From positions 66,912-130,911 of the forward strand of contig CASYOT010000002.1 in NCBI GenBank assembly GCA_949484645.1: 64,000 nt of DNA, in the 5' to 3' direction. This document shows, one piece after another, positions 2,873 to 58,532 of the stretch. Each line of letters begins with the position of its first letter. The stretch's first letter is position 1. The notes below the pieces were generated by a model. That model ran no database searches and was not told where the DNA came from. It saw nothing but the letters and a program-made list of their open reading frames with translations. Origin of the DNA: an uncultured Lachnospiraceae bacterium. Its GTDB lineage: Bacteria > Bacillota > Clostridia > Lachnospirales > Lachnospiraceae. Both the position numbers and the translations under genes were made by a program.

Positions 2873-3598
2873 ATGAGACTGCTGTTTATACGGCATGGAG
2901 AGCCGGATTATGAAAAGGATTCTCTGACAGAAAAGGGATTTCGGGAAGCGGAATATTTGGCAGAGTATCTTGCTGATGTAAAAATCGACGCATGTTATGT
3001 TTCGCCGCTTGGAAGGGCAAAAGATACGGCTGCCCCGACCCTTTTGAAAAAGCAGATGACGGGCGTGGAATGCCAGTGGCTGGAAGAATTTCCGGCCAAG
3101 GTAGTTCGTCCCGACAAAGGATTTCCGATAAATTGCTGGGATTTTCTGCCTCAGGACTGGACGGGGGTAAATGAGTATTATGACAAGAGCCTTTGGGCAA
3201 AAACGGAATTGATGGAAGAAGGAAATGTCGCCCAGATTTACCAGAATGTGACGCAGGAGTTTGACGGGCTGCTTGCAAAACATGGATATGCGCGGGAAGG
3301 CAATATCTATCGCGTTGAACGGGCAAACCGTGACACGATCGCGTTTTTCTGTCATTTCGCATTGGAATGTGTATTGTTAGGGCATTTAATTGGAGCTTCT
3401 CCTATGGTATTATGGCATGGATTCTGCGCCGCGCCTTCTTCTGTGACGACAGTGTTTACGGAAGAACGCAGGGAGGGCGTGGCTTCTTTCCGGATTAGCA
3501 GGTTTGGGGATATTTCGCATCTCTTTGTGAAAGGGGAAGAACCGTCATTTTATGCGAGGTATTGCGAGACGTTTGACAGTGATGAGAAGCGCGATTAA
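2873..3598 (+). CDS. Histidine phosphatase family protein (phosphoglycerate-mutase-like)
   Basis: N-terminal LLFIRHGEPDY catalytic RHG motif. Length 241 aa. Confidence 0.7.
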   Translation: MRLLFIRHGEPDYEKDSLTEKGFREAEYLAEYLADVKIDACYVSPLGRAKDTAAPTLLKKQMTGVECQWLEEFPAKVVRPDKGFPINCWDFLPQDWTGVNEYYDKSLWAKTELMEEGNVAQIYQNVTQEFDGLLAKHGYAREGNIYRVERANRDTIAFFCHFALECVLLGHLIGASPMVLWHGFCAAPSSVTTVFTEERREGVASFRISRFGDISHLFVKGEEPSFYARYCETFDSDEKRD

Positions 3599-4743: not shown

Positions 4744-6771
4744 ATGAGCCGTAAAAAGAAAAAGAAAAAATACCGTGTGTTTTGGTTTTTTGCAAAACTT
4801 CAGTTTGTTCTGATGCTTTTGGTAGCCGCCGCCCTAGGCTACTATTATTATGGAGGATATGCCGTACAGGTTCAGAAGATGAAAGCGGAAGCTGTGCGGT
4901 TTGTGCGCGGGTCGACAGAAGCCACGTTTTGCGTGGCTCAGACCAGCGTTGTGTATGACAAAGACGGAAATACGATTTCAACGTTAAAAGGGGAAAAAGA
5001 CGTTTACTATCTGCCATATGAGGATATTCCGTCTGATGCATGCGCCGCTATCGTAAGCATAGAAGATAAAAAATTTTATCAGCATAATGGAATTGATTAC
5101 CGGGCGATTTTCCGCGCGGCAAGAGCCGCGATTGAAAACGGAGAAGTGACACAGGGCGGGAGCACGATAACACAGCAGCTTGCAAGGACGATTTTTTTGA
5201 CACAGGATCGGACATGGCAGAGAAAAGTCGAGGAAATGTTTATTGCAACAGAGCTGGAAAAAAAGTACAGTAAAAATAAAATCCTAGAATTTTATCTGAA
5301 TAATATATATTTTGGCAATGGTTATTATGGGATTCAGGCGGCGAGCAGAGGATACTTTAATGCAGACGTGAATGACTTGGATTTGTCACAAATTGCGTTT
5401 TTATGCGCCATTCCCAATAATCCGACGCTTCATGACCCGCTGACGAATATGCAAAACACGTTAGGGCGCAGAGACCGCATTCTTTTAAATATGTATGAAG
5501 ACGGGAAAATTTCAAAAGGCGCGTACCTGATGGCAAAATCGGAGGAAATCACATTAAACCGGCCAGAGCATACAAAAAATAACTATGTGGAGACGTATAC
5601 ATATTATTGCGCAATACGTCTGTTAATGGAACGGGAAGGCTTTGTTTTTCAGACAGAATTTAAAAATGACGAAGAAAAAAGCCTGTATGATACGCGTTAT
5701 AGTGATTTGTATGCGGAATGCCAGAAAAAACTGTTTACAGCGGGCTACCGCATCTATACGTCAATGGATTTAAAATTACAGGAACTTCTTCAAAAGACAA
5801 TAGATGAAAAACTCTCCGGTTTTACAGACGTAAATGAAGAAGGCGTATTTAAACTACAAGGAGCAGGCGTCTGCATAGAGAATGAGACAGGATATGTCAG
5901 GGCAATCGTCGGGGGCAGAAGCCAAGACTTTGCGGGATATACGTTAAACCGGGCATATCAAAGCTATAGGCAGCCAGGAAGCGCAATTAAGCCGATACTA
6001 GTGTATACGCCGGCGTTGGAACAGGAATATACGCCGGATTCGATTGTAGTGGACGAACCGATTGAAGAAGGCCCGTCGAATGCAGACGGAAGTTATAGTG
6101 GAGAGATGACGCTGCGTTCTGCGCTGGCCCGTTCGAAAAACACGATTGCATGGAAACTATTAGAGGAGATAACGCCAAAAAAAGGACTCTCTTATTTAAA
6201 AGCAATGAAATTTTCGCGGATTGCAGACGAAGACGAGCGGCTTACGTCAGCTTTAGGAGGATTGACAAACGGAGTGTCCCCAGTCGAACTTACAGCGGCT
6301 TACGCAACGCTTGAAAACGACGGAAAATACCGCGCTCCAACCTGCATCATAAAAATTACAGATGCCGACGGCAACGAAATTCTCTCCACTTCACAAGAAG
6401 AAACAAACATCTATAAAACAACTGCCGCCCGCATGGCGACGAATATGCTTGTTACGGCAATAACGGAAGGAACCGGCAGAGGGCTTGGCGTAACGGGAAT
6501 GCCGTCCGCAGGAAAAACAGGGACGACGAATGACAATAAAGACGGTTGGTTTGCAGGGTATACGCGTTATTATACGACAAGTGTCTGGGTCGGCTACGAT
6601 ATGCCGGAAAAACTTCCCGGTTTATCTGGATCTTCCTATCCGGGGGAGATATGGCGCAGTTTCATGGAAACCTGCCATGCCGGACTGCCGGCGCTTGAGT
6701 TTTTGCCTTATGTAGATGTGGAAATGGATTTGTACCAGAAGATACGGCAGGATGCCCTAGGAGAACAATAA
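4744..6771 (+). CDS. Class A penicillin-binding protein (bifunctional transglycosylase/transpeptidase, PBP1A family)
   Basis: N-terminal transmembrane segment. GT51 motifs (EDKKFYQHNGID, RTIFL). Transpeptidase SAIKP/KTG motifs. Length 675 aa. Confidence 0.85.
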   Translation: MSRKKKKKKYRVFWFFAKLQFVLMLLVAAALGYYYYGGYAVQVQKMKAEAVRFVRGSTEATFCVAQTSVVYDKDGNTISTLKGEKDVYYLPYEDIPSDACAAIVSIEDKKFYQHNGIDYRAIFRAARAAIENGEVTQGGSTITQQLARTIFLTQDRTWQRKVEEMFIATELEKKYSKNKILEFYLNNIYFGNGYYGIQAASRGYFNADVNDLDLSQIAFLCAIPNNPTLHDPLTNMQNTLGRRDRILLNMYEDGKISKGAYLMAKSEEITLNRPEHTKNNYVETYTYYCAIRLLMEREGFVFQTEFKNDEEKSLYDTRYSDLYAECQKKLFTAGYRIYTSMDLKLQELLQKTIDEKLSGFTDVNEEGVFKLQGAGVCIENETGYVRAIVGGRSQDFAGYTLNRAYQSYRQPGSAIKPILVYTPALEQEYTPDSIVVDEPIEEGPSNADGSYSGEMTLRSALARSKNTIAWKLLEEITPKKGLSYLKAMKFSRIADEDERLTSALGGLTNGVSPVELTAAYATLENDGKYRAPTCIIKITDADGNEILSTSQEETNIYKTTAARMATNMLVTAITEGTGRGLGVTGMPSAGKTGTTNDNKDGWFAGYTRYYTTSVWVGYDMPEKLPGLSGSSYPGEIWRSFMETCHAGLPALEFLPYVDVEMDLYQKIRQDALGEQ

Positions 6772-6782
6772 ATCCGAACGCC

Positions 6783-7006
6783 AAACAGAGCGCCGGGTAT
6801 TCTGTCGGCGAAGTGTTCAGGGATTAAGGAGTTCTAAAGTATCCCATGTTTTATGCCGGTGACGGACGAAACCGCTCTAAAAGCGCCGTCCATGGCGCAT
6901 TAGAGCTTCCGCAGACATCGTGTCTGCGGATTTCTGTTTGTTGAAGGGATACTTAAGAACTCCTAAATCCCATCACAAGGCGCCAACAGAATACCCGGCG
7001 CTCTGT
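6783..7006. repeat. Large imperfect palindromic intergenic element, family copy 1
   Basis: Terminal inverted repeats aaacagagcgccgggtattctgt / acagaatacccggcgctctgtt. Inner inverted pair gggattaaggagttctaaagtatccc / gggatacttaagaactcctaaatccc. Core gccgtccatggc. Confidence 0.8.
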
Positions 7007-7465
7007 TCGTCTGGTAGTTGGGGGTGGAACGTATGAGAGAGTTGGAAGTTGAAGAAAGAAGAAAGTTACGCTTTCAAGTCCTAAAGTTCATTAAAGGCGC
7101 CAATAGGAAACCCGGCGCTCTGTTCGTTTGGTAGTTGGGGGTGGAACATATGAGAGAGTGGAAGTTGAAGAAAGAAGAAAGTTACGCTTTCAAGTCCTAA
7201 AATTCATTAAAGGCGCCAATAGGAAACCCTGCGTTTTGTTGGTCTGGTAGTTGGGTGTGGAACATATGAGAGAGTGGAAGTTGAAGAAAGAAAATATGTG
7301 CGCATTAAAGACCTAAATTCCATCAAAGGCGCCAATAGAAAACCCAGCTCTAAGTTGGTCTGGTAGTTGGAGGCTGGAACGTATGATAAGGCGCTGATAG
7401 AATCTACGGCGCTCAGTTTGTCTGGTAGTAGTTAGGGAGTGAAACGTATGAAAACGTGGCGATTT
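6979..7465. repeat. Tandem array of ~4.5 degenerating 116-117-bp units, derived from the right arm of palindromic element 1
   Basis: Units begin at 6979, 7096, 7212, 7328 (truncated) and 7390. Each starts ggcgccaa(c/t)ag...ggtggaacgtatgagagag...caagtcctaaa. Confidence 0.85.
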
Positions 7466-7585
7466 TTAAAGAGGTGAAAAGTTAAACAAAAATCCTAAAA
7501 ACCTACACATCTATATTTATGTAGATATACCAAAACAAAAAGAAACAAAGCCAAAACCCTATCGGGCAGCCAGTAACGTAGTCAG

Positions 7586-7806
7586 GGGGTGGCGCTTGGC
7601 GGGTGGCGTTATGATTGGATTTAGAACTTCTTAACAGTCACATTTCGATTCAGGAATCCGCGAACAGGACGTTCGCGGAAGCTCCATTCACGCCATGGAC
7701 GGCGTGTATGGAGCGGTTCCGTCCGTATTCAAGATAGCTGCGGGACTGTTTAGAAGTTCTTAATCCATGAATAAGTCACCCGCCAAGCGCCACCCCATGA
7801 CGGACA
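7586..7806. repeat. Large imperfect palindromic intergenic element, family copy 2
   Basis: Terminal inverted repeats ggggtggcgcttggcgggtg / cacccgccaagcgccacccc. Inner ggatttagaacttcttaacag / ctgtttagaagttcttaatcc. Core cacgccatggacggcgtg. Confidence 0.8.
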
Positions 7807-7824
7807 CATTTATTTAATTATGGA

Positions 7825-7853
7825 TTGACATTAACCCCCCACAATTTTATACT
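7825..7853 (+). promoter_or_regulatory. Sigma-A-type promoter for the glucokinase gene
   Basis: TTGACA-N17-TATACT, about 35 nt upstream of the ATG at 7888. Confidence 0.5.
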
Positions 7854-7887: not shown

Positions 7888-8826
7888 ATGAAAAAATATG
7901 GTTTTGGCGTAGACATTGGCGGGACGACCTGTAAGATTGGACTGTTCGAGACGACAGGGGGGCTTGTGGAAAAATGGGAAATTCCCACAAGAAAAGAAAA
8001 TAATGGAGAAAATATCCTTCCGGACGTTGCGGCGTTTATAACGGCGAAAATGGTGGAAAAGGATATTTTAAAAGGAGACATTCAGGGAATTGGAATTGGG
8101 GTTCCGGGGCCTGTGACTGGGGAAGGCGTTGTATTAAAATGCGTCAACTTGGGCTGGGATGTGATTAATGTTGCAAAGGATATGGAAGAACGGACGGGCT
8201 TTACCGTAAAAGTCGGCAATGACGCAAATGTGGCTGCGCTTGGCGAAATGTGGCAGGGCGGCGGCAAAGGATATACGAATGTTGTAATGATTACGCTTGG
8301 GACCGGAGTGGGCGGCGGCGTAATCGTTGATGGAAAAGTTGTCAGTGGAAATAAAGGAGCCGGCGGGGAAATCGGGCATATTATTGTCAATGAGAATGAG
8401 ACGGAATCTTGTGGATGTGGACAGAAAGGCTGTTTGGAGCAGTATGCATCCGCAACTGGGATTGTCCATATGGCAGAGCGTAAGTTAGAGGAATCGGAGA
8501 AGAAAAGCCAGCTTCGTGAGATTAAGCCGTTGACGGCAAAAGATATTTTTGACGCGGCAAAAGGGGGCGACGCCTTAGCCGATGAAATTGTGGAAGATAT
8601 GACTAAGATATTAGGCGGTGCGCTTGCAAATGTTGCCCGTGTCGTAAATCCTGAGACTTTTGTAATTGGCGGAGGCGTGTCGAAAGCAGGCAGCATTATT
8701 ACGGAGCGTGTCAAAAAATACTATGACGCCAAGTCGTTTAATGCGTGTCTGGACGCTCATTTTGACCTTGCAACTTTGGGAAATGATGCAGGAATTTACG
8801 GTTGTGTGCGTATGATTTTAGAATAA
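7888..8826 (+). CDS. glcK: ROK-family glucokinase
   Basis: MKKYGFGVDIGGTTCKIGLF ATP-binding N-terminus. ROK Cys/His zinc motif (HIIVNENETESCGCGQKGCLE). AAGGAGA Shine-Dalgarno sequence before the ATG at 7888. Confidence 0.85.
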   Translation: MKKYGFGVDIGGTTCKIGLFETTGGLVEKWEIPTRKENNGENILPDVAAFITAKMVEKDILKGDIQGIGIGVPGPVTGEGVVLKCVNLGWDVINVAKDMEERTGFTVKVGNDANVAALGEMWQGGGKGYTNVVMITLGTGVGGGVIVDGKVVSGNKGAGGEIGHIIVNENETESCGCGQKGCLEQYASATGIVHMAERKLEESEKKSQLREIKPLTAKDIFDAAKGGDALADEIVEDMTKILGGALANVARVVNPETFVIGGGVSKAGSIITERVKKYYDAKSFNACLDAHFDLATLGNDAGIYGCVRMILE

Positions 8827-24658: not shown

Positions 24659-24699
24659 AACCTCCTTTCAAAAGAATCCCATCATAAAAAAGCATTTAC

Positions 24700-24960
24700 A
24701 AACAGAAACAAAATAACCCGCCAAAAAAGAAACACATACTTACAGAATGCGCAAACCTCCCAAAACATATCAATTCCAGCCCAAATTCCAGCTTTAAAAA
24801 CAGCAAAAGCGAAACAAACCAATCAATGAAACCAACAAAAGCGAAACAAGGTAACAAAACAGCAAAAGTAAAACAAGTCAATATAGAACCCACAACACAC
24901 ACATAGTTATAACATAAAAAAACAAAGTACATTTTAGCCTGCGAATTAGCAGATAACATT
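24700..24960. repeat. A/C-rich (plus strand) low-complexity tract with ~3 degenerate direct repeats (cagcaaaagcgaaacaa)
   Basis: Strong strand compositional skew. Repeats aaacagcaaaagcgaaacaaacc / aaccaacaaaagcgaaacaagg / aaacagcaaaagtaaaacaagtc. Confidence 0.6.
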
Positions 24961-25043
24961 CACAGCCAACCGTATAGCCATACACCCTTAAGCGCCACCG
25001 ATATAATATAAAAAAGTAAATTCAGCCAAAGCGCCGCAAAAAA

Positions 25044-25252
25044 GCCGTCTATGCTAGCGGGGCATTGTGATGGGATTTAGGGATTCTTATGTGTTCCTGC
25101 AACATACAGCAATGCCCTGCCATGGACGGCAGGGCAAACTGCAGCCACGCCATGGAAGGCGTGTCTGCAGTGGTTGCGTCCGAAACCAAAAAGCAGAAGG
25201 AACACATTAGAACCCCTTAATCCCAGAACACAGCCCCGCTAGCATAGACGGC
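25044..25252. repeat. Large imperfect palindromic intergenic element, family copy 3 (inverted orientation relative to copy 1)
   Basis: Termini gccgtctatgctagcggggc / gccccgctagcatagacggc. Shares the 17-mer ttgtgatgggatttagg with copy 1 (reverse complement) and the ccatggacggc core. Flanked by A6 and T6 runs. Confidence 0.8.
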
Positions 25253-25317
25253 TCTTTTTTGCGTATTTTGCCACCCCAAAATCCTACCACATTTTTTATA
25301 TTAATTCAAATTAGCAG

Positions 25318-25346
25318 TTGACATTTATTTCCTACTGTATTATACT
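25318..25346 (+). promoter_or_regulatory. Sigma-A-type promoter of the acpP-fab operon
   Basis: TTGACA-N17-TATACT, about 75 nt upstream of acpP. Confidence 0.55.
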
Positions 25347-25351
25347 TTGCC

Positions 25352-25374
25352 TGTCAAATAATTTGACAATCAAA
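25352..25374. promoter_or_regulatory. Overlapping palindromes TGTCAAATAATTTGACA and TTTGACAATCAAA; candidate FabT (MarR-type) operator
   Basis: Perfect 17-bp palindrome immediately downstream of the -10 element. The TTTGA-N3-TCAAA half-sites resemble streptococcal FabT boxes. Confidence 0.4.
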
Positions 25375-25420
25375 ACATTTGAACTTCAAATCAAAAATGT
25401 CTTAAAAAGGAGAATCAGTT

Positions 25421-54310: not shown

Positions 54311-57300
54311 ATGATTAAGTATAGCGTGAAAAAGCCATTTACGGTATTAGTCGCAGTGATTATTGTATTGGTAATTGGATTGGTTTCACTTACAGGAATG
54401 AAAACGGATTTACTGCCGGACATGAGTATGCCGTACATGATGGTGATTACGACTTATCCGGGGGCAAGCCCGGAAAAAGTGGAGGAAAGCGTTACAAAAC
54501 CAATGGAGGGAGCATTGGGGACGATAAACGGCGTAGAAGACGTGACAAGTTCCAGTTCTGAAAATTACAGTATGGTTATGCTGGAGTTTGAAGAAGACAC
54601 GAGCATGGATTCTGCGATGGTAAAAGTTTCCTCGGCGATTAACCAAATAGAATCGGCGCTGCCGGAGACATGCGGCGCGCCGAATATTTTAGAGATTAGC
54701 ATGGATATGATGGCGACGATGTACGCCAGCGTCAGTTATGAAGGGAAAGACATTTATGAGTTGTCTGGCTTTACGGAAGAAGTGGTGATTCCGTATTTTG
54801 AACGGCAGGCGGGCGTGGCGAGCATATCGGAAATCGGCATAGTGGAAAAGTCGGTGGAAGTTCGGCTGAATCAGGAAAAAATTGATAAAATAAATGATCA
54901 AATATTGGTAAAGACAAATGACAAGCTTTCAGAGGCGCAGTCAGAGCTTTCCGAAGCGGAAAATTCATTGGCGGACGCAAAGTCAAAAATCAATAAACAA
55001 GAGCAGGATTTGTCAAATCAGCAAAATTCGACAACGACGGAACTTGCGGATGCGACATTAAAATTAAATGAAGCGGTTGCTTCGAGGGCGGCGTATGAAT
55101 CCCAGCTTACCAGCCTAAAAGCAAGTAAAAGCGCTTTAGAAGGTGAGAAAAAGGCATATAAAGAGAATAAAATAGAAAGTACATATAACAGCATAAACGA
55201 TATGTTTGCGCAGCTTTCCGCCGCTGTTGCAGGGATTTCCGCGCAGCTAGGGGAAGCCAGCCCGTTGGATGCGTCTGCGATGCCGGCAGATATAAAAGAT
55301 GCAATCGACAATCCGGATAAATTGAACTATTTCAAAACGGCAGTGGAAACGCTTGCGGGAATGCCTAATTCACAGATAGATAAGGGCATGGTTCGTCAGG
55401 CAAAGGAACTAGACAAAAAAACATTAAAACAGCTTTATGACATTGTAAACGTCCGCCTTCCGCAAATAGAGACGGAGCTGGCGAATCTGGAGGTAGAGAT
55501 TAAAGTAGCGGAAGAAGTCTTAAAGCAGGTGGAAACCCAGATGGCGTCCATTGACGAGGCGTATAAGCAGGCGGAACAAGGCAAAATATCTGCGGCGGCG
55601 GGGTTTGGTTCCGGCGGCGCGCAGATTGCCGCGGCAAAGACGGCAATGGAAGAAGCGCAGGAAGAATTGGAAAATGCCAATAAGACGTATCAGGATTCTG
55701 TTGCGGAAGCGAGGAAAAATGCGAATATCAATCAAATGTTGACGTTAGAAGCGCTTTCTGGCATGATCTATGCGCAAAATTTTTCTATGCCGGCAGGATA
55801 TATCGACGATGAAAATGAGAAACAATGGCTTTTAAAAGTAGGGGAAAATTATACTTCGGCGGAAGAATTAGAAAAAATGACGCTCTGTGAGATAGACGGC
55901 ATTGGGGACGTTCATTTGAATGACGTTGCGGATATTACGACGATTGACAATGCCGGAGAAACATATGCGAAGGTCAATCAGGACGCCGGAGTGATTCTAT
56001 CTATTTTTAAAGGCAGTACGGCGGGCACAAGCGATGTTTCAGAAGCCTGTTTAAACGCAATAGAGGAATTAAAAGAGGACTACCCAAAATTGAACATTAC
56101 GCCGTTAGTGAATCAGGGGGAATATATTTCTATGCTGATTCAAAGCATTGTGTCCAGCATGGTGATTGGGGCGCTGCTTGCGATTTTCATTTTGGCAGTC
56201 TTTTTGATGGATATACGCCCAACGATCGTCGTTGCGTTTAGTATCCCGTTCAGCGTTTTGACGGCAATCGTCATTATGTATTTTGCAGGCATTTCCATCA
56301 ACATGATGTCCCTGTCAGGGCTTTCTTTGGCAGTAGGTATGCTGGTGGATAACTCCATTGTTGTAATAGAAAATATTTACCGTCTGCGGTATCGGGGCTT
56401 AAGTTCTCCCCGTTCTGCCGTTCAAGGGGCAAAACAGGTGGCTGGGGCGATTATAGCGTCAACGCTTACGACGATTTGCGTATTTTTCCCGATGGTGTTT
56501 ACGACGGGCATGGTGAGGGATTTGCTGTTGCCGTTTGCTTTGACGATTACGTTTGCCCTGACGGCTTCCTTAGCTGTTGCGCTGACAGTAGTGCCTACGA
56601 TGGGGGCGGCAATGCTTCGGAAGGCGAAACCGAAACAGCATCGTATTTTTGATAAGATTCAGGAAGGCTATGCGGCGGCGCTTAAGTTTTGCCTGAGATT
56701 TAAAATTGTTCCGCTTGGAATTTCTGTCGGGCTTTTGGCGATTTGCATTGCCGCGGTTATGAAAATGGGGATCGTGTTAATCCCGGATATGGGTAGCGAC
56801 CAGATTTCCGTAACGGTGACGATCCCGGAAGAAGACACGAAAGAAACGGCTTATCAAAAAGCAGACGATGTGATGGAAGCGATTCTTGGGATTGAGGGAG
56901 TTGGATATGTAGGAGCCATGGACGGCAGCAGTTCTGCCGGATTAATGGGCGGCATGACGGGCGGTTCTTCGGATAATTTCAGTAATTTTTCGTATTTTGT
57001 TCTTCCCGCGGAGGAATATAACAGCAAATCTCAGGTGGAGGGCATTTGCGATGCGATTTTAGAACATACGAAAGAGTTTGAGTGCGAAGTGGCAGTGTCA
57101 AATTCTATGATGGGTGAAATGGATCAAATGCTTGGCAGCGGCCTTCAGCTTGACATAGGCGGTTCGGATTTGGATCAACTGCTGTTGGTAAGTGAAGAAA
57201 TTATGGAGATGTTGGAGGGTGTGGAAGGTTTTTCTAATATCAGCAATGGGCAGGAGGAAGCGGACGAGGAAATTCATCTGAATATTGATAAAGATGCATC

Positions 57301-58327: not shown

Positions 58328-58532
58328 GGGATTGAAGGATAATAATATAAAAAACAGAATCGAAGAATTTGTAGGAAATTATCATGAAAAACAGAATTGA
58401 TGAGTTTGTAGAAAATTATCATAAAAAACAGAATCGAAGAATCTGTAGGAAATTATCATAAAAACAGAATTGATGAGTTTGTAGAAAATTATCATAAAAA
58501 ACAGAACCGATGTATTTGTAAAAAATTATATT
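58328..58532. repeat. Five tandem ~37-bp units in an alternating A-B-A-B-A' pattern
   Basis: aaaaacagaatcgaagaatttgtaggaaattatcat / aaaaacagaattgatgagtttgtagaaaattatcat alternate. The last unit pairs with a downstream ggttctgttttt sequence to form a hairpin. Confidence 0.8.

Follow-up and report, generated by a model that had tools for sequence, protein, structure and literature searches.

The TwoAYGGAY motif, held in Rfam since 2010 as RF01731, was described by Weinberg et al. (2010; PMC2864571), who noted that its closing stem P1 is 'often very large' and often ~24 bp long, gave no function and made no mention of paired elements. Gardner and Eldai (2015; PMC4333381) noted the agreement of both its loops with the CsrA-binding hairpin and suggested a small RNA (sRNA) of Clostridia that binds CsrA; a 2025 preprint refers to the motif as relatively unexplored. 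RF01731 belongs to Rfam clan CL00106, which is the clan of E. coli CsrB, and the CsrA proteins of Roseburia, Agathobacter and another member of the Lachnospiraceae are functional binders of GGA hairpins (PMC13443453). The motif is among the few candidate RNA antagonists of CsrA outside the Proteobacteria, and its hosts are abundant butyrate-producing gut bacteria. Here we analyze 64,000 nucleotides from the genome of an uncultured Lachnospiraceae bacterium (contig CASYOT010000002.1, positions 66,912–130,911; this whole stretch is called the window, and coordinates are counted from its first nucleotide). Two TwoAYGGAY elements and a tandem repeat array lie in the window between a gene for a penicillin-binding protein (PBP)-like product and the ROK-family glucokinase gene glcK, and a third element lies upstream of acpP.

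All three hairpins match RF01731 over model positions 1–168 of 168, with scores of 120–137 bits against a gathering score of 43 bits, and because of these full-length matches their identity as TwoAYGGAY elements is practically certain. The left copy of the PBP–glcK locus ('A' type) has its core on the minus strand at 6813–6978 (135.2 bits, E = 6e-26, model positions 1–168) and the right copy ('B' type) has its core on the plus strand at 7609–7774 (120.5 bits, E = 1e-22, full model). The third copy, also on the plus strand, occupies 25040–25260 with its core at 25065–25231 (137.2 bits). At the level of membership there is no difference from the described family, with which the copies share the full model match, two terminal AYGGAY loops, a long closing P1 and a gut Clostridiales host. 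An initial annotation, made from the letters of the window, correctly recognized a repeat family at the PBP–glcK locus but missed which one; since TwoAYGGAY is already catalogued in Rfam, this is not a new family. The elements are new copies of a catalogued family, and the new results concern the anatomy of the locus and of the family. Beyond the available TwoAYGGAY literature are (i) insertion relative to sister species, (ii) divergent pairing, (iii) variable tandem arrays on the 5′ side that derive from the feet of the elements, (iv) G-poor flanks and (v) covarying outer stems built from Watson–Crick pairs rather than G–U pairs. Otherwise the finding in the window is an ordinary one, namely new copies of a known motif and a variable-number tandem repeat (VNTR).

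Hairpin 1 spans positions 6784–7007, with 62-nt arms (6784–6845 and 6946–7007) that are 85% complementary. Hairpin 2 spans 7581–7801, with arms at 7581–7605 and 7777–7801 (96%) and at 7609–7639 and 7744–7774 (84%). Hairpin 2 repeats hairpin 1 in inverted orientation, with a core identity of 70%, and the three cores in the window show 66–72% pairwise identity. The predicted RNA folds have energies of −143.5 kcal/mol for hairpin 1 (z = −15.2 relative to shuffled sequences), −138.3 kcal/mol for hairpin 2 (z = −13.3) and −145.7 kcal/mol for copy 3 (z = −16.5). The initial annotation had placed two hairpins and a tandem array between the PBP gene and glcK, and they are present at nearly the coordinates it gave; the second element also exists, but its span has to be moved from 7586–7806 to 7581–7801. 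The suggestion of a structured repeat family was correct, and the fold is conserved.

Each copy in the window is closed by an additional outer stem of 25–30 bp, formed by Watson–Crick pairing and lying beyond the Rfam model, to which we refer as P1. In copy 1, read on the minus strand, the 3′ arm of P1 (6784–6810) pairs with the 5′ arm (6981–7007) with a single U–G pair, and the 5′ arm doubles as the opening 27 nt of array unit 1. In copy 2 the plus-strand 5′ and 3′ arms lie at 7581–7605 and 7777–7801, and in copy 3 at 25040–25064 and 25233–25260. The outer arms of the three copies are unrelated in sequence (11–16 of 27–28 positions agree), and one P1 base pair follows a stepwise compensatory path, from C:G in the window through A:G in strain L127 to A:T in strain L002. 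Copy 1 also has a short 3′ tail at 6772–6783 (minus strand; ATCCGAACGCCA on the plus strand) that directly abuts the PBP stop codon; tails resembling it (CGAAC/TTCGG) are present in Lachnospira and Hespellia copies. Copy 2 is preceded on the plus strand by an A/C-rich, G-poor leader (7466–7580; 90.5% identity between strains) that includes a conserved foot motif, ..GCCAGTAACGTA directly followed by GTCAG, common to copies of the Roseburia clade. The hairpin loops expose GGA in five of six cases: AUGGAC and AUGGAA in copy 3, (C)AGGAC and AUGGAC in copy 2 and AUGGAC in loop 2 of copy 1, whose loop 1 is a variant, ACACGAUGU, without GGA.

A comparison with related genomes, made through contigs that carry the glucokinase protein (many labelled 'Eubacterium sp.' by NCBI), indicates how the locus was assembled. 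In the window 1116 bp, with no open reading frame (ORF) of more than 42 codons, separate the PBP-like gene (4744–6771) from glcK (7888–8826), and the corresponding block is carried by five strains of the window's own species. In sister species whose glucokinases are 90, 85 and 80% identical, the gap from the PBP stop codon to glcK is only 76, 61 and 63 bp and holds just the stop codon, a TTGACA-17-TATACT promoter and a ribosome-binding site. Because the sister species have only this 61–76 bp spacer, the whole ~1.05 kb (about 6772–7824) is very probably an insertion that lies after the PBP stop codon and ahead of the −35 box. Its left edge, judged from the empty sites, is the tail of copy 1; its right edge falls between the 3′ arm of P1 in copy 2 and position ~7824, leaving outside it the glcK promoter (7825–7853, plus strand), which is also found at the empty site of the sister species. 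The block brought its own outer stems. Insertion into a pre-existing palindrome can be rejected at this locus, as the empty sites have no such arms.

Copy 3 tells a similar story. Between a response-regulator gene and acpP there are 762 bp in the window and 224 bp in the sister species, with homology restarting just upstream of the acpP −35 box. As judged from this alignment, copy 3 and the leader that precedes it (24659–25039, plus strand), which is absent from the sister species, are a second insertion; this leader, ~380 bp long, is again strikingly A/C-rich and G-poor. No TwoAYGGAY motif is present in any sister-species locus that was compared. No target-site duplication is evident at empty sites that are ~10% diverged and allow the edges to be placed only within ~10–20 bp. 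The glcK and acpP genes have an identical near-consensus promoter, TTGACA-17-TATACT (7825–7853 and 25318–25346), and copies 2 and 3 end 24 and 58 bp upstream of these promoters and point towards them.

The space between the two hairpins is taken up by the leader of copy 2 and by a tandem array of 116/117-bp units, without assigned strand, that extends from 6977 to approximately 7465. Tandem Repeats Finder (TRF) reports 6977–7386 with a period of 116 bp, 3.5 copies, 88% matches and a score of 592, and repeat families carry the array on to ~7465 through a shortened 62-bp unit and a degenerate fifth unit. With unit starts at 6977, 7094, 7210, 7326 (62 bp) and 7388 (degenerate), the earlier description of about 4.5 copies decaying in identity is a fair one. 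The opening of every unit reproduces the right arm of hairpin 1 (repeat family D2), as had been noticed, but dissection of the unit shows that it joins the 5′ feet of both hairpin types. Its three pieces are (i) the reverse complement of the P1 5′ arm of the left (A) element, (ii) a stretch, GTAGTTGGGGGTGG...ATGA, corresponding in alignment to GTAGTCAGGGGGTGG...ATGA, the 5′ foot of the right (B) element, and (iii) the reverse complement of the first ~25–40 core nucleotides of the A element. The array unit thus consists of the back-to-back 5′ feet of the hairpin pair, amplified head to tail, and the amplification would most likely have come about through slipped-strand or unequal recombination where the long palindrome has its base.

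The array differs among strains, as expected from the earlier proposal that it is in flux. In three strains the spacer measures 1116, 1237 and 1350 bp, corresponding to 0, 1 and 2 extra internal units and to TRF copy numbers of 3.5, 4.5 and 5.5. These unit counts come from short-read assemblies, in which identical 117-bp units may be miscounted, and we consider real copy-number variation in this non-coding array probable. In the diverged strain L127 the array is 75.6% identical to that of the window and contains indels, compared with 97.8% and 95.0% for the two hairpins and 98–99% for the flanking genes. G-tracts in the array units (7024–7030 in the window and equivalents in L001 and L002) contain 5, 6 or 9 G across units and strains, which reflects homopolymer slippage. 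An invertible promoter (inverton) was considered and rejected: all five strains have the spacer in a single orientation, no recombinase is encoded nearby and no promoter was found in the spacer.

It has to be asked whether the array units encode small peptides from a Shine–Dalgarno-like motif and an ATG. The motif, GGGGGTGG, is real and lies 5 nt upstream of the ATG in units 1–3, and in strains L127 and L128 one gene caller has placed an ORF of 41 aa. The frames that follow run for 33, 16 and 16 codons, however, and are shifted out of register between 116- and 117-bp units; the diverged strain retains just one of them. The combination of 'Shine–Dalgarno' and ATG can itself be explained, on the alignment given above, as the G-rich foot of the B-type element. 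Peptide coding by the units is extremely unlikely, and a coding array was rejected on the grounds that the short frames are not conserved, in agreement with the initial annotation, which had pointed to the motif and argued against coding.

The elements are not unique to the PBP–glcK locus. In addition to the third copy in the window there are at least 230 further loci, and a survey of Lachnospiraceae genomes and gut metagenomes yielded ~300 elements. A scan with a degenerate pattern identified at least 119 loci in genome contigs and at least 120 in gut metagenome contigs, and an iterated nhmmer profile identified 158 elements in the genome set and 148 in the metagenome set among the matches listed. 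Nearly all of the genome-contig loci carry Lachnospiraceae-type names; a few are named just 'bacterium' and one Acutalibacteraceae, again among the matches listed. Single genomes hold at least 18 (Lachnospira sp.), 17 (Roseburia sp.) or 13 ('Dorea' sp.) copies. The unit common to copies at different loci is 266–303 bp long and lies between unrelated flanks, and identity among the copies of one genome does not exceed 91%.

An outer P1 stem is present in all full-length copies, whose 45-nt flanks pair with a median energy of −62 kcal/mol, compared with −24 kcal/mol for shuffled partners. RNAalifold applied to 15 paralogs of one Lachnospira genome finds compensatory double changes at 34 of 79 base pairs, mostly in P1. 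In the loop that was not fixed by the search pattern, GGA is present in 96 of 121 copies. About 20% of these 121 copies, in several lineages and including copy 1 of the window (6908–6930), have CACGAYG instead of GGA in the first loop. This variant recurs but would not qualify as a CsrA site.

Three regularities are evident in how the elements are arranged. The first concerns polarity. Of 29 adjacent pairs in genome contigs, with the window counted once, 27 are divergent (−,+), and metagenome contigs contain 14 (−,+) pairs and no (+,−) pair; all 11 metagenome pairs less than 400 bp apart, representing six distinct loci, are (−,+). The eight metagenome cases of same orientation all derive from a single pilus-operon locus that was repeatedly sampled. 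Left (A-type) and right (B-type) copies constitute distinct subtypes that cluster across genera, with copy 2 of the window falling among the right-hand copies of Roseburia; as these subtypes recur across genera, the divergent pair looks like an old unit, at least from the clustering of its sequences. The spacer between the members of a pair is not conserved among pairs of one genome. A further regularity is that tandem arrays adjoin elements far more often than expected. In the genome set 46 arrays have a period of at least 20 bp, and 20 of these are found no more than 300 bp from an element, with 17 on its 5′ side; near an element in the metagenome set are 10 of 35 arrays, every one on the 5′ side. 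In several of these cases the array unit includes the 5′ arm of P1, as it does in the window. Finally, the 50–250 nt flanks on both sides of the elements are G-poor on the Rfam strand, with a GC skew of about −0.15 (p ~1e-8). The best explanation for these observations is a dispersed Lachnospiraceae repeat family that is maintained by selection and whose usual unit is the divergent pair.

The clade that includes Roseburia and the window (window 7575–7585; L057, L099, L110, L081, L075 and others) has a characteristic boundary, in which P1 starts after a conserved unpaired foot, ..GCCAAAAC(C)GTA, with G(T/C)C(A/G)G as the first nucleotides of the stem. The outer stem in this clade ends in ..C(T/C)G(A/G)C followed by GG and often then TTTTGCC. 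The GTAG within this CGTA/GYC foot is reminiscent of the GTAG head of repetitive extragenic palindromic (REP) sequences, and we take it as a lead only.

The most likely function of the family is the published CsrA-decoy idea, to which we give tentative preference on the basis of sequence, with a DNA element of the REP type or of the miniature inverted-repeat transposable element (MITE) type as a close rival. The inserted block consists of two divergent copies with facing 5′ ends, each closed by its own outer stem. According to the decoy model, each element would be expressed as a hairpin RNA of ~230–260 nt, in which the two A(N)GGA loops would clamp one CsrA dimer, with the long outer stem setting the bounds of the RNA and protecting it. 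The family as a whole may then act as a distributed CsrA decoy. Taken together, an inserted divergent TwoAYGGAY pair, a variable array and a CsrA-decoy working model form the best overall explanation of the locus, and we judge the chances of this combination being right to be about even. Favoring a strand-specific role are the conservation of the A(N)GGA loops on one strand, the G-poor flanks on that same strand and the fixed polarity of both the pairs and the tandem repeats. In favor of CsrA as the partner are the fit of the loops to its hairpin consensus, the shared Rfam clan, the 96 of 121 copies with GGA in the loop left free by the search pattern and the GGA-hairpin binding of the Lachnospiraceae CsrA proteins. 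The Csr/Rsm sponges of clan CL00106 (CsrB, CsrC, RsmY and RsmZ) also have GGA in hairpin loops in a CANGGANG context, and for TwoAYGGAY a decoy role has been put forward (PMC4333381). TwoAYGGAY differs from these sponges in having two sites per RNA rather than 7–22, in placing them within a near-perfect hairpin of ~230 nt, in being multi-copy and dispersed, in lacking a dedicated promoter that we could find and in its Firmicutes hosts. To our knowledge, the FliW protein is the sole known antagonist of CsrA in Firmicutes.

Several observations weigh against the decoy model. The stems are nearly all Watson–Crick; isolated G–U pairs are no commoner than A–C mismatches (35 versus 26 in P1 and 9 versus 9 in P2), and for want of asymmetry this strand test does not confirm which strand is the RNA. 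A strong sigma-70-like promoter that would drive the sense strand occurs within 150 nt of only two of 109 elements; of the strong promoters close to elements, 22 are directed away and eight inward, there is no sense-side excess of −10 boxes or T-runs, and no canonical promoter for the sense strand of the elements was found in the window. Upstream of P1, the Lachnospira copies carry conserved but weak −10-like motifs. The lack of GGA from loop 1 in copy 1 and in ~20% of copies, and the unlikeness of a two-site decoy with a 30-bp perfect stem to known Csr/Rsm sponges, also count against the model. So does the lack of any csrA, fliW or flagellin gene across 930 kb of flanking sequence, with the reservation that an RNA acting in trans does not require such a gene nearby. 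The GC-skew switch expected in pair spacers for two outward G-poor transcripts was not seen, despite flanks that are G-poor on average. The insertion behavior, the divergent pairs, the Watson–Crick-only stems and the unstable flanking tandem repeats provide handles for experiments, and they are also a caution that the 'sRNA' label may not tell the whole story.

Alternatively, the elements may work as DNA, as a non-autonomous palindromic mobile element of a REPIN, MITE or foldback-like kind that forms a hairpin or cruciform in single-stranded DNA. An element of this kind would rely for its movement on a protein whose gene lies at another genomic site. Its two identical loops would be bound by a dimeric recombinase or nuclease, the divergent pair would represent the inverted termini of a single mobile unit and the tandem repeats would be subterminal repeats. 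Such an element would account for the two independent insertions that set the window apart from the sister species, for many dispersed copies per genome in lineage-specific clusters, for a discrete 266–303 bp repeat unit between unrelated flanks and for the CGTA/GYC foot; pair polarity as fixed as that of transposon ends, tandem repeats on the inner side, Watson–Crick-only stems with no excess of G–U and the failure to find an own promoter likewise favor this reading. The outer stems, which would be the terminal repeats, are nevertheless wholly different between copies of one genome, no target-site duplication was recognized and the spacer shows no conservation from pair to pair within a genome. 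Within-genome identities of at most 91% do not indicate recent bursts, and orientation relative to co-directional genes is only weakly, and not significantly, biased (38 antisense versus 23 same, p = 0.07). The ~755 flanking ORFs include no transposase or recombinase and the neighbors are housekeeping genes; the clusters among these 755 ORFs at 119 loci are generic (ABC ATPases, two-component systems, EF-G, sigma-70 and aminoacyl-tRNA synthetases), and no transposase-coding autonomous relative was found in these flanks. One weak YhgA-like match lies next to a copy at locus L245. Carriage by phages or plasmids is not indicated either, with no matches in 2.9 million viral contigs, 72,556 plasmids and 50,697 phages. 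On balance a role as mobile DNA is possible but rather unlikely. The more specific proposal that TwoAYGGAY is the long hairpin end of a previously unrecognized Lachnospiraceae mobile palindromic element, moved by a protein encoded elsewhere, is unlikely; were it true, the element would spread as inverted pairs whose 5′ feet face inward and carry tandem sub-repeats, and would seed genomes with CsrA-type GGA hairpins beside promoters. Comparison with described elements is instructive here. Systems of REP/REPIN and REP-associated tyrosine transposase (RAYT) are recognized by a GC-rich palindrome of 20–40 nt, a GTAG head, hundreds of copies and a REP-flanked RAYT gene, whereas the family described here has a 266–303 bp unit, at least 13–18 copies per genome, a CGTA/GYC foot in one clade and no RAYT gene in the flanks. 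With REP, bacterial interspersed mosaic element (BIME) and REPIN sequences it shares dispersed extragenic palindromes, compensatory changes, frequent inverted doublets and, in one subfamily, ..GTAG.. at the stem foot, but the elements are 5–10 times longer, conserve the center rather than the arms, number tens rather than hundreds and have no RAYT-like gene near any copy. Bacterial MITEs that fold as RNA (Correia/NEMIS, ERIC/IRU, RUP and bcr1) are similar in length (~150–300 bp), intergenic position, long imperfect palindrome and insertion polymorphism between related species; unlike them, the elements have yielded no shared terminal repeats, target-site duplication or parent insertion sequence. 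The label 'MITE-like' used by the initial annotation is apt in part, for the insertion relative to sister species and the dispersed family; no inverted repeats of MITE type are conserved between copies at their ends, where only short foot motifs are common within subfamilies, and neither a recognizable target-site duplication nor, in the flanks, a related transposase was found. Eukaryotic foldback transposons have a similar layout, with long inverted ends, tandem sub-repeats on the inner side and a variable middle; the analogy is one of layout alone and implies neither relatedness nor a shared mechanism.

A third possibility is that the hairpins are cis-acting transcription barriers or transcript-end stabilizers, comparable to BIME/REP sequences, that shield the glcK and acpP promoters from read-through, the GGA loops being incidental. 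The placement of copies 2 and 3, ending 24 and 58 bp upstream of near-consensus promoters, would suit such a role, as would the position of the left copy directly after the PBP stop codon, the 22:8 excess of strong nearby promoters that point away from elements and the A-run/T-run flanks of some subfamilies. The related genome L139 even has a plain 25-bp hairpin in the same place upstream of acpP. For a barrier, however, there would be no reason to conserve a three-way junction with its pair of identical loops, and the sister species do without an element at both sites. A simple terminator scan gave nothing specific, and T-tracts after the stem are not enriched in either direction; an intrinsic terminator was rejected on these counts (a mean of 3.3 T in the 12 nt after P1 on the sense side and 3.7 on the antisense side; six or more T were counted for 17 of 110 elements on the former and 10 on the latter). 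We regard a mainly cis-acting function of this kind as quite improbable, and return to the CsrA decoy as the preferred, if tentative, reading of the hairpins.

Some members of the family depart from the usual form. In Hespellia sp. (L005, L016, L027, L050 and L073) the palindrome reaches ~300–340 nt (GTCAAAAG...CTTTTGAC and beyond), and its complementarity declines gradually outward with no sharp end. Four diverged copies of the same orientation lie 0.85–1.7 kb apart at L245 (7063–11572), antisense to the surrounding genes and interleaved with genes of an operon resembling those for type II secretion and type IV pili (T2SSF, pilin N-methylation motif). The weak YhgA-like match mentioned above, to Transposase_31 (26.9 bits), is an intervening ORF at this locus that adjoins one of the copies. 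Transposon cargo was considered for the widely spaced 'pairs' in L013, L098 and L022 and rejected, as these enclose housekeeping genes and not transposases.

The remaining observations concern the surroundings of the elements. The L139 hairpin (~270–330; FabK 90% identical) has a stem of ~25 bp and a GTTTTTT loop (ATTCGCCGCCGGTTCTTAGCCGCT/AGCGGCTTAGTACCGCTGCGAGCGAAT) and contains no TwoAYGGAY core, although it occupies the position of copy 3; it could be an ordinary terminator or a footprint. Two further tandem repeats in the window, at 58347–58529 (73 bp × 2.5) and 54877–54921 (23 bp × 1.9), are unrelated to the elements. Between the acpP promoter and start codon, at 25355–25395, lies a palindromic sequence, TTTGACA(A/G)TCAAAA.ATTTGA..., which is conserved in sister species (L137, ~3190–3225) and is probably an operator for a regulator of fatty-acid synthesis.

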